A stretch of DNA of 64,000 nt, taken from the NCBI GenBank assembly GCA_944389745.1, contig CALXNM010000004.1:795-64794 (forward strand), in the 5' to 3' direction. The stretch is from an uncultured Clostridia bacterium (GTDB lineage Bacteria > Bacillota > Clostridia > TANB77 > CAG-508). The notes beneath the pieces were generated by a model that worked only from the letters and a program-made list of their open reading frames with translations, searched no databases and was not told where the DNA came from. Positions within the stretch are counted from its first letter, which is position 1. Each line of letters opens with the position of its first letter. A program made the position numbers and the translations under genes. Below, piece after piece: positions 24,682 to 25,132 of the stretch.

Positions 24682-24747
24682 AAAAAGAATAGACCATATC
24701 ACCATAAATGTTTCTTTTAAAAACATTTACAATAATACAGTCTATCC
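24682..24747 (-). terminator. Leader terminator L0: 27-bp hairpin plus U-tract upstream of giant gene 1
   Basis: On the minus strand: GGATAGACTGTATTATTGTAAATGTTT, loop TTAAAAG, AAACATTTATGGTGATATGGTCTATTC, then TTTTTG. All 27 positions pair when G-U wobbles are allowed. Confidence 0.7.
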
Positions 24748-24822
24748 CTGTAGTTACTTTATCTATATATTTTGAAATTTGAGGCATGCTTAATAGAATT
24801 CTTCTTGCGAAGAATCTGTTAT

Positions 24823-24888
24823 CTAATAGTGTGCCCTCTCTCTCTCTCTCTCTCTCTCTAGAGCCATGCGGTTTTCAAGCTTCATCAT
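24823..24888 (-). CDS. Leader uORF0 (21 aa, MMKLENRMALERERERERAHY) containing the (AG)12 tract
   Basis: An AAGGAG RBS lies upstream of ATGATG. In the assembled repeat length the frame stops at a TAG about 75 nt before the L0 hairpin. Confidence 0.35.
   Translation of the reverse strand: MMKLENRMALERERERERAHY
24836..24859 (-). repeat. Dinucleotide SSR: (CT)12 on the plus strand, (AG)12 in the transcript sense
   Basis: Direct count of the tract. Confidence 0.95.
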
Positions 24889-25065
24889 TTCTTTCTAGTC
24901 TCCTTTTCTTCTTTTTCCTTGTTTTTCAAGCATTTTCACTTGTTTTTATGTGTTAATTCGAATTTTGATTTTTCTATTTCTAATTTTGTTTTCTTTTTAT
25001 TTTTTATTTCATTTTGTATTATTTTTTACTTAATAATCCATCCACTTTTTTCTAACTTTTAAACG

Positions 25066-25132
25066 CAAAAAAGGATAGGCTATATTGCCATAAGCGTTTT
25101 GTTACAAACATTTACAGCAATACAGTCTATCC
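25066..25132 (-). terminator. Leader terminator L1 (homologous long hairpin plus U-tract)
   Basis: GGATAGACTGTATTGCTGTAAATGTTT...AAACGCTTATGGCAATATAGCCTATCC, then TTTTTG. There are two mismatches in about 27 bp. Confidence 0.65.

Follow-up and report, generated by a model that had tools for sequence, protein, structure and literature searches.

The window analysed here, a stretch of 64,000 nucleotides (nt) from contig CALXNM010000004.1 of an uncultured Clostridia bacterium, is AT-rich (about 28% GC) and contains three tandem giant genes, A, B and C, all on the minus strand. Upstream of these genes, each encoding a protein of about 3,100 amino acids (aa), four copies (L0 to L3) of a long RNA hairpin are encoded on the same strand. 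The hairpins belong to leaders that also carry a small upstream open reading frame (uORF) with a dinucleotide repeat, and the most likely interpretation is that three genes for giant, putative surface proteins are switched on and off at random by a switch in these leaders. The genes and the big hairpins are located as follows:

15436..24588, minus strand: giant gene A, 3,050 aa, with a GTG start and the ribosome-binding site (RBS) AAAGGA
27099..36572, minus strand: giant gene B, 3,157 aa
37913..47365, minus strand: giant gene C, 3,150 aa
24685-24749, minus strand: big hairpin of L0, 31 bp with 9 G-U pairs in the RNAfold structure, and five U residues (U-tract 24682-24686); putative terminator and proposed second switch of gene A
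25071-25134, minus strand: big hairpin of L1 and six U residues (U-tract 25067-25072); putative intrinsic terminator and proposed first switch of gene A
36696-36760, minus strand: big hairpin of L2 and five U residues (U-tract 36693-36697), in the leader of gene B
47461-47525, minus strand: big hairpin of L3 and six U residues (U-tract 47457-47462), in the leader of gene C

The giant proteins are about 85% identical to one another over their first 400 (N-terminal) residues, and each has hydrophobic segments in its N-terminal and C-terminal parts. Comparison with Pfam, NCBIfam and PDB sequences returned no family or structural relative, and the relatives of these proteins show just faint Glug and fn3 matches in precomputed Pfam annotation. 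Their central regions are rich in GG[IL][IV]G-type repeats. DNA almost identical to the window is present in chicken-gut metagenomes, and the nearest genome-level relatives are two metagenome-assembled genomes (MAGs), both "uncultured Clostridia bacterium", with 56-68% protein identity.

The hairpin is specific to these leaders. A pattern search of the window with a 14-mer gave four matches against 0.18 expected, and a covariance-model search of the window found no sense-strand copies other than these four. An initial annotation made from the DNA alone had stated that all L0 stem positions pair on the minus strand with at least seven wobbles, and that the structure pairs on that strand only. 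The first statement is accurate: the L0 stem is uninterrupted, and besides the 31-bp RNAfold structure listed above, its 29 aligned stem columns comprise 21 Watson-Crick and 8 G-U pairs. Folding both strands with RNAfold, as the annotation had proposed, gave a more stable minus strand in all four copies, with -31.9 (minus) versus -10.6 kcal/mol (plus) for L0, -32.5 versus -24.4 for L1, -28.2 versus -24.2 for L2 and -31.9 versus -21.5 for L3. Minus-strand z-scores ranged from -6.7 to -9.6, and 0 of 200 shuffles folded equally well. The preference for the minus strand thus stands, but not the word "only": the complement of L1-L3 still folds at -21 to -24 kcal/mol, so that the two strands differ in how stably they fold, by 4 to 21 kcal/mol, rather than in whether they fold.

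Comparison of related copies showed that pairing is maintained while sequence changes. Sixteen distinct big-hairpin sequences, some of them from the window and the others from related loci in metagenomes and MAGs, were fitted to a covariance model. Standard pairs occupy 92.5% of 455 stem cells, versus 40-54% after a shift of the 3' partner by 1-3 columns; three short sequences are imperfectly aligned, which lowers the paired fraction and does not raise it. Both sides have changed in 7 of the 29 pairs (15 cells). The exchanges between window copies described in the initial annotation are found in this alignment. Stem position 15 (columns 23/55) is A-U in L0, L2 and L3 and G-C in L1, position 16 (columns 24/54) is U-G in L0 and C-G in L1-L3, and positions 9 and 14 (columns 17/61 and 22/56) alternate between U-A and U-G. 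In the most divergent lineage (L004, L012 and L025) the inner stem is almost wholly rewritten, yet the predicted stability is still -26 to -30 kcal/mol. Of 500 shuffles, 0-1 matched the paired fraction, double-change counts or covariation score of the real alignment; these shuffle counts are not probabilities, since the 16 sequences are related and the model was built from the same structure.

The same copies display a strand asymmetry. The sense strand is the more stable one in 15 of the 16, and cells with G-U, which pair on the sense strand only, number 79, versus 20 cells with A-C, which pair on the antisense strand only. The proposal that this is a selected RNA structure on the sense transcript of the giant genes is therefore supported by pairing, doubly changed pairs and asymmetry alike, and in the wider alignment with homologs pairing is kept rather than broken as often as preserved.

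Across leaders the big hairpin has 26-31 bp and a predicted stability of -25 to -33 kcal/mol. The U5-6 tract adjoins the stem on its 3' side, and the giant open reading frame (ORF) begins 95-130 nt further downstream. Its base, AGGGAUAG.../...CUAUCC(U) followed by U5-6, is present in 16/16 copies and is closed by G-C pairs. The T5-6 tract and the G after it are invariant, in line with the TTTTTG or TTTTTTG noted earlier. A stable hairpin, a G-C-closed base and an immediate U-run are what defines an intrinsic terminator at the sequence level, and all three are present here; the stem is atypically long. At the Rfam gathering score the sole real match in the window was a 6S RNA, with none on the leader. 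With expectation values (E) up to 10, the leader hairpin drew spurious, sub-threshold microRNA-like matches to long hairpins.

When the four upstream regions of the window were aligned, about 220 nt 5' of the hairpin also proved conserved. They include a perfect dinucleotide repeat, (GA)n in L0 and (CA)n in L1-L3, and the 64 kb contain no long dinucleotide repeats besides these four tracts. Each unit, read along the minus strand, begins with an RBS and ATG, followed by about 10 codons, the (GA)n or (CA)n repeat, overlapping stops (TATTAA / TAA-TAG) and a small hairpin of 8 bp closed by a GCAA-type tetraloop. A spacer of about 50 nt, the big hairpin with its U-tract, 95-130 poorly conserved nt, and the RBS and start of the giant ORF complete the order. 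In the window the parts upstream of the big hairpins are the following:

25375..25385, minus strand: extended -10 promoter-like motif TATGTTATAAT of L1, 79 nt upstream of the L1 uORF ATG; the sole such motif serving the L1-L0 tandem
37042..37052, minus strand: promoter-like motif match TATGTTATAAT of L2
47771..47781, minus strand: promoter-like motif match TATGTTATAAT of L3
25080..25304, minus strand: uORF of L1, long frame, 74 aa, with a GGAG RBS and (CA)12 at 25251-25274
24823..24888, minus strand: uORF of L0, short frame, 21 aa, with a GGAG RBS and (GA)11 at 24837-24858; stops 75 nt before the big hairpin
36827..36922, minus strand: uORF of L2, short frame, 31 aa, with (CA)8 at 36877-36892
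47596..47697, minus strand: uORF of L3, short frame, 33 aa, with (CA)13 at 47642-47667
25179..25198, minus strand: small hairpin of L1, GATTCTTC-GCAA-GAAGAATC, 8 bp and a tetraloop
24797..24816, minus strand: small hairpin of L0, GATTCTTC-GCAA-GAAGAATT
36805-36824, minus strand: small hairpin of L2, followed by spacer and big hairpin
47570-47589, minus strand: small hairpin of L3, followed by spacer and big hairpin

The same anatomy of RBS and ATG, repeat, small hairpin, big hairpin and U5-6 was found in 15/15 distinct leaders, drawn from the window and from loci L004, L009, L012, L018, L021, L022, L025 and L026. All have GGAG or AAGGA 8-12 nt before the uORF ATG and (GA)7-16 or (CA)8-16 starting 30 nt after it. 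The small hairpin is located exactly at the stop site of the short frames and is followed by a U-rich stretch. It is conserved as a structure, with 96.7% of cells paired versus 47-62% when slid, and four of its eight pairs are doubly changed. Folds of the full leader kept both the small and the big hairpin, and no competing antiterminator pairing was found in them. The only codon runs in the leader peptides are those encoded by the repeat.

The motif TATGnTATAAT occurs 43-287 nt upstream of the uORF ATG in 11/11 leaders that stand first in line, and also in 6/6 of the examined paralogs that carry their repeat inside the giant ORF (see below). None of the four second-in-line leaders has it. The window contains seven matches to TATGTTATAAT against 1.34 expected, and the other copies are also upstream of ORFs. 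Since L0 is without the motif and comes immediately after L1, gene A is preceded by two serial units. Such pairs of leaders exist at four loci (window L1-L0, L018/L019, L022 and L026), each with the promoter motif before the first leader only.

Three further features of the leaders deserve mention. A third predicted stem-loop, CUAUGUUCUUACC..GGAAGAGAAUAUG, lies between the repeat and the short-frame stops of (CA)n leaders (approximately 25216-25250, 36842-36876 and 47607-47641, minus strand) and recurs in L018a, L022a/b and L026a; (GA)n-type leaders are without this block of about 30 nt. Each leader also has a stem-loop directly downstream of the promoter motif (47731-47765, 25330-25365 and 36985-37040, minus strand; 3885-3912 in L002). 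Its sequence differs per lineage, being UAUCUGUAGAAGG..UGCAGAUA in L3 and GCCAUUGGGG..CCCCAUUGGC in OZ006978.1, and it could serve to stabilise the 5' end. Between the putative L1 terminator and the L0 uORF, the spacer (24900-25060, minus strand) holds ..ACAAAATTAGAAATAGAAAAATC.., a sequence similar to the initial codons of the giant ORF (AGACAAATTAGAAATAATGAG). Loss of a gene that once separated two leaders may have produced the tandem; the succession of (CA)n and (GA)n leaders is nonetheless conserved in other genomes (L018/L019 and L026).

The behaviour of the reading frames ties the repeat to the hairpin. Each repeat was changed in silico by plus or minus one unit. In 15/15 leaders exactly one post-repeat frame is open far enough to enter the big hairpin or pass it. 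The remaining two encode peptides of 18-36 aa; their stops fall at the conserved site immediately 5' of the small hairpin, which leaves 65-126 nt to the big stem. The long frame comprises 63-92 aa. Its stop lies in the 3' arm, 7-10 nt short of the U-tract, or follows the start of the U-tract by 13-46 nt; measured from the 5' base of the big stem, the frame ends after 50-107 nt. Between the repeat end and the U-tract (149-193 nt) it has no stop or one terminal stop, versus 3-9 stops in each of the other frames. With about 10% stop codons in those other frames, we estimate the chance of an open run of about 50 codons at about 0.004 per independent lineage, and the open frame is kept in at least three diverged lineages, despite in-frame insertions (13-15 additional codons in L012 and L025 compared to L004). 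The peptide encoded between the two hairpins is poorly conserved. Openness or translatability, and not the product, therefore appears to be selected.

In the window, L1 (n=12) has the long frame; its TAG stop falls within the 3' arm of the big hairpin, with 7 nt remaining to the U-tract. L0 (n=11), L2 (n=8) and L3 (n=13) have short frames. In silico, L0 would be converted by n=10 or 13 to a frame of 70-72 aa running past the U-tract, L2 by n=9 to an 87-aa frame through the hairpin, and L3 by n=12 to a 92-aa frame through the hairpin. Every post-repeat frame in the window stops before the start of the giant ORF, which sets these repeats apart from the classical in-ORF kind.

Repeat length varies between samples. 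L009, L010 and L011 are one locus recovered from three samples, with n=11, 12 and 10. The flanks of L009 and L010 are identical in 350/350 and 1199/1200 bases, and a 71-aa frame exists at n=12 only. Protein P0028 from public metagenomes corresponds to the exact long frame of window L0 with n=13, compared to n=11 in the window. A profile of the long-frame peptide retrieved 46 called proteins of 41-106 aa from public metagenomes. Logan unitigs of the chicken-gut DNA runs X1-X4 over 24500-25500 are broken at the dinucleotide repeats and mix paralogs. A scan of JGI metagenomes with an N-terminal protein alignment found no relatives.

A protein-anchored scan of representative genomes returned eight loci. 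In seven of them (L001-L003 and L005-L008), all from OZ006978.1, a homologous repeat is placed inside the giant ORF, where the start region ATG..AAACCGCATGGCTCTA(GA)nGCTACACTATTAAATAAC runs straight into the transmembrane segment of the giant protein. Judged by this layout, the in-ORF repeat has the form of a classical frame-shift phase-variation switch. One of the seven paralogs is in frame (n=12) and six are out of frame (n=7, 7, 10, 10, 13 and 16). In the window, the long uORF frame (..TLLSN../..TLLNN..) reads this region as the in-ORF ON frame (..ATLLNN..) does. The eighth locus, L004, and loci from protein searches have the window layout, and OZ006978.1 also carries the uORF-hairpin layout (L019 and L021). 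All six out-of-frame in-ORF copies are congruent to 1 mod 3 and none to 2, a pattern that may reflect either gene conversion by three units at a time or a bias to one OFF frame. At least 9-10 giant-gene paralogs are found in OZ006978.1 (genome of about 1.7 Mb), by our estimate about 5% of its DNA.

Taken together, we consider it likely that the hairpin and U-tract form an intrinsic terminator gated by the repeat-framed uORF, which would produce phase variation of the giant genes. The repeat-bearing uORF with its open frame through the hairpin is what makes of a terminator-like leader hairpin a specific candidate switch. Transcription would begin at the extended -10 promoter, and a ribosome would load at the uORF RBS and ATG and translate the (GA)n or (CA)n repeat. 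In two of three frames it would stop at TATTAA / TAA-TAG before the small hairpin, the big hairpin would form, and transcription would terminate at the U-tract (OFF). In the third frame the ribosome would pass the small hairpin and proceed at least 50 nt into the big hairpin or beyond the U-tract, blocking the stem and permitting read-through (ON). Gain or loss of a repeat unit in replication would then change the state of a cell lineage. The small hairpin may provide a pause in which the trailing ribosome catches up with the polymerase. For gene A, with two serial switches (L1, then L0) and a promoter at the first only, both would have to be ON.

Several points weigh against this terminator switch. 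With L1 ON but L0, L2 and L3 OFF, the model puts all three giant genes in the OFF state in the window consensus. None of the RNA runs searched for the locus holds it, and metatranscriptome X15 contains 12% of the words of a neighbouring stretch. Stems of 26-31 bp that are AU- and GU-rich are far longer than those of usual intrinsic terminators, and tight coupling of transcription and translation is not universal in Firmicutes. A simple terminator scan flagged the L3 hairpin only, of the four. Nine of the 15 leaders came from searches that did not involve the uORF; the others came via called long-frame proteins and are therefore ascertained in the ON state. The relatedness of the aligned hairpins, mentioned above, belongs with these points. 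In favour of the switch, a consensus search found no promoter-like site on the minus strand between hairpin and giant ORF. The same search missed the extended -10 motifs, and together with the flagging of L3 alone this makes consensus promoter and terminator scans uninformative for this AT-rich organism.

A demonstrated precedent exists. In Streptococcus gallolyticus, the pil1 and pil3 loci are preceded by a leader peptide gene with GCAGA repeats (Danne et al., 2014; PMC3894217). Expression is low with short versions of the leader peptide, which end 39 bp ahead of a stem-loop terminator, and longer versions end within or beyond the stem and raise transcription via ribosome-induced destabilisation of the terminator (PMC3894217). 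Deletion of the terminator locked expression on, and a start-codon mutant was among those tested (PMC3894217). The window leaders have the same succession of promoter, RBS and ATG of a leader ORF with a simple-sequence repeat, stem-loop terminator (putative here, as is the promoter) and target gene. In both systems short frames end before the stem (39 bp there, 65-126 nt here) and long ones inside it or further downstream, isolates or samples differ in repeat number, and the host is a Firmicute. It is this feature-by-feature match of the parts that leads us to read the window hairpins as uORF-gated intrinsic terminators.

The two systems also differ. They have no sequence relationship, and the repeats are 13-22 copies of GCAGA in S. 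gallolyticus versus 7-16 of GA or CA here. Out-of-frame changes of either sign lead to long peptides there, whereas one of three frames is long here. The stem is longer and stronger here (-25 to -33 versus -18.7 and -28.2 kcal/mol). A conserved small hairpin at the short-frame stops, and serial double switches in four loci, are additional to what is found in S. gallolyticus. The targets there are sortase pili, and here an uncharacterised multigene family of membrane-anchored proteins of about 3,100 aa. Function was demonstrated in S. gallolyticus and we infer it here.

Other known systems share part of the logic. Neisseria opa and Haemophilus lic are classical cases of phase variation by simple-sequence repeats within the ORF, in which slipped-strand changes of the repeat shift the frame and turn surface proteins ON or OFF stochastically (see also PMC3894217). 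The OZ006978.1 paralogs appear to use the homologous (GA)n in this manner; in the window, by contrast, the repeat is outside the structural gene, and its frame would be relayed via the terminator hairpin to control transcription. In Clostridioides difficile, DNA inversion by a recombinase reportedly makes or unmakes an intrinsic terminator in the 5' leader of cwpV. This, too, concerns a phase-variable large surface protein in a Clostridium-class host and depends on whether a leader terminator forms, but the window leaders have a repeat-framed uORF instead of an invertible segment flanked by inverted repeats. In the trp and his leaders the position of the ribosome on the leader peptide decides whether the terminator hairpin forms (outlined in PMC3894217). 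Ribosome position would likewise be decisive here, and the 5' hairpin could be a pause that synchronises ribosome and polymerase. Unlike these attenuators, the window leaders have no regulatory codon runs and no antiterminator hairpin, and the input would be heritable repeat length, not tRNA charging.

The unusual length of the stem also fits a different function. The hairpin might be an RNA-stability or processing element, such as a substrate of RNase III or a stem with a protective role in the 5' untranslated region, with translation of the long frame altering cleavage and half-life. A near-perfect duplex of 26-31 bp is long enough for a double-strand-specific RNase and is unusual for a terminator. 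This explanation would leave the invariant U5-6 after the G-C-closed stem base without a role, and the S. gallolyticus precedent operates by termination (PMC3894217). We regard it as unlikely.

It is also improbable that the terminator or attenuator is constitutive, or controlled in trans by an antiterminator protein or small molecule, and that the repeat uORF is a remnant of the in-ORF design. The 5' part of the uORF is homologous to the N-terminus of the OZ006978.1 in-ORF genes, and may thus be a relic. A relic would not, however, be expected to retain an RBS, an ATG, two conserved stops in the other frames, each of which has 3-9 stops in this AT-rich sequence, and an open frame of 50-64 codons across lineages with in-frame indels. 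Nor did the full-leader folds contain an alternative antiterminator pairing, or Rfam provide a match to a riboswitch or leader family.

That such ORFs are called as genes in public data (the 46 proteins mentioned above), and that a stretch of about 95-130 nt lies between the U-tract and the giant ORF, would suit a long uORF that encodes a functional small protein with its own terminator, with the giant gene transcribed from a separate promoter downstream of the hairpin. Against this, the peptide is poorly conserved beyond the stretches constrained as RNA stems, and most copies from searches that did not involve the uORF have its frame broken. Moreover, the sense-strand promoter scan downstream of the hairpin was empty, and this stretch, RBS excepted, is the least conserved of the leader. 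A small protein of this kind is therefore very unlikely to be the explanation. We give almost no credence to a DNA-level inverted repeat (a recombination or protein-binding site, or a dispersed repeat) without RNA function, for although the element is palindromic and repeated at paralogous positions, its strand asymmetry, compensatory changes, one-sided T-tract and confinement to the sense leader of one gene family all speak against it.

The surroundings of the giant genes provide some additional observations. The gaps between them contain small cargo, which in the window (25511-26851 and 37100-37660, minus strand) consists of an AAA_14/DUF4143 ATPase and two small ORFs. Equivalent gaps in relatives (L018 8853-9597; L026 8080-9494; L009 1301-1857) hold pairs of the toxin-antitoxin or defence-like type, namely HEPN and nucleotidyltransferase, AbiEi and AbiEii, and DUF4258 genes. 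Distant giant-gene homologs (L013, L014 and L017; 56-72% identity) are without repeat and hairpin, lie directly behind another gene, and hence do not contribute to the covariation test. The conserved gene upstream of them has a product ending in ..KYGEKEQLLLKK.., and the same gene is found upstream of the promoter in L002 (3301-3735), which suggests that the ancestral state was an operon without phase variation. A full-length 6S (SsrS) RNA gene lies elsewhere in the window (7463-7647, minus strand; 109.8 bits, E 2.9e-21, gathering score 46.4).

A full-text literature search, limited to searchable papers, found no described example beyond S. gallolyticus. Since the kind of mechanism is already known, the leaders described here are not categorically new. 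New compared to S. gallolyticus are the dinucleotide repeats with one ON frame in three, the extra stem-loop and the serial switches. So are the giant-protein multigene family, the coexisting in-ORF version among its paralogs, and the uncultured gut Clostridia host. The leaders carry a risk for annotation, as uORFs may be miscalled as genes and the expression of giant genes misjudged.

If the terminator switch is correct, the same logic in unrelated sequence from chicken-gut Clostridia would make it a recurrent solution and no one-off. So far it has been demonstrated for two pilus loci of one streptococcal species; here it would involve no fewer than 15 distinct leaders, along with 46 called uORF products. 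The presence of both designs among the paralogs of one genome would offer a natural series for studying why a switch might be moved from translation to transcription. A possible gain of the transcriptional version is that neither a 9-kb mRNA nor truncated products would be made in the OFF state. Two serial switches would constitute a testable genetic AND gate. More tentatively, and with some doubt, the leader can be pictured as a stackable modular device, in which the repeat is placed either in the ORF or in a terminator-gating uORF, (CA)n and (GA)n units in series form a heritable AND gate, and the small hairpin supplies a pause. Over about 10 paralogs per genome, such a device might provide combinatorial, graded antigenic variation among the putative giant surface proteins in uncultured gut Clostridia.

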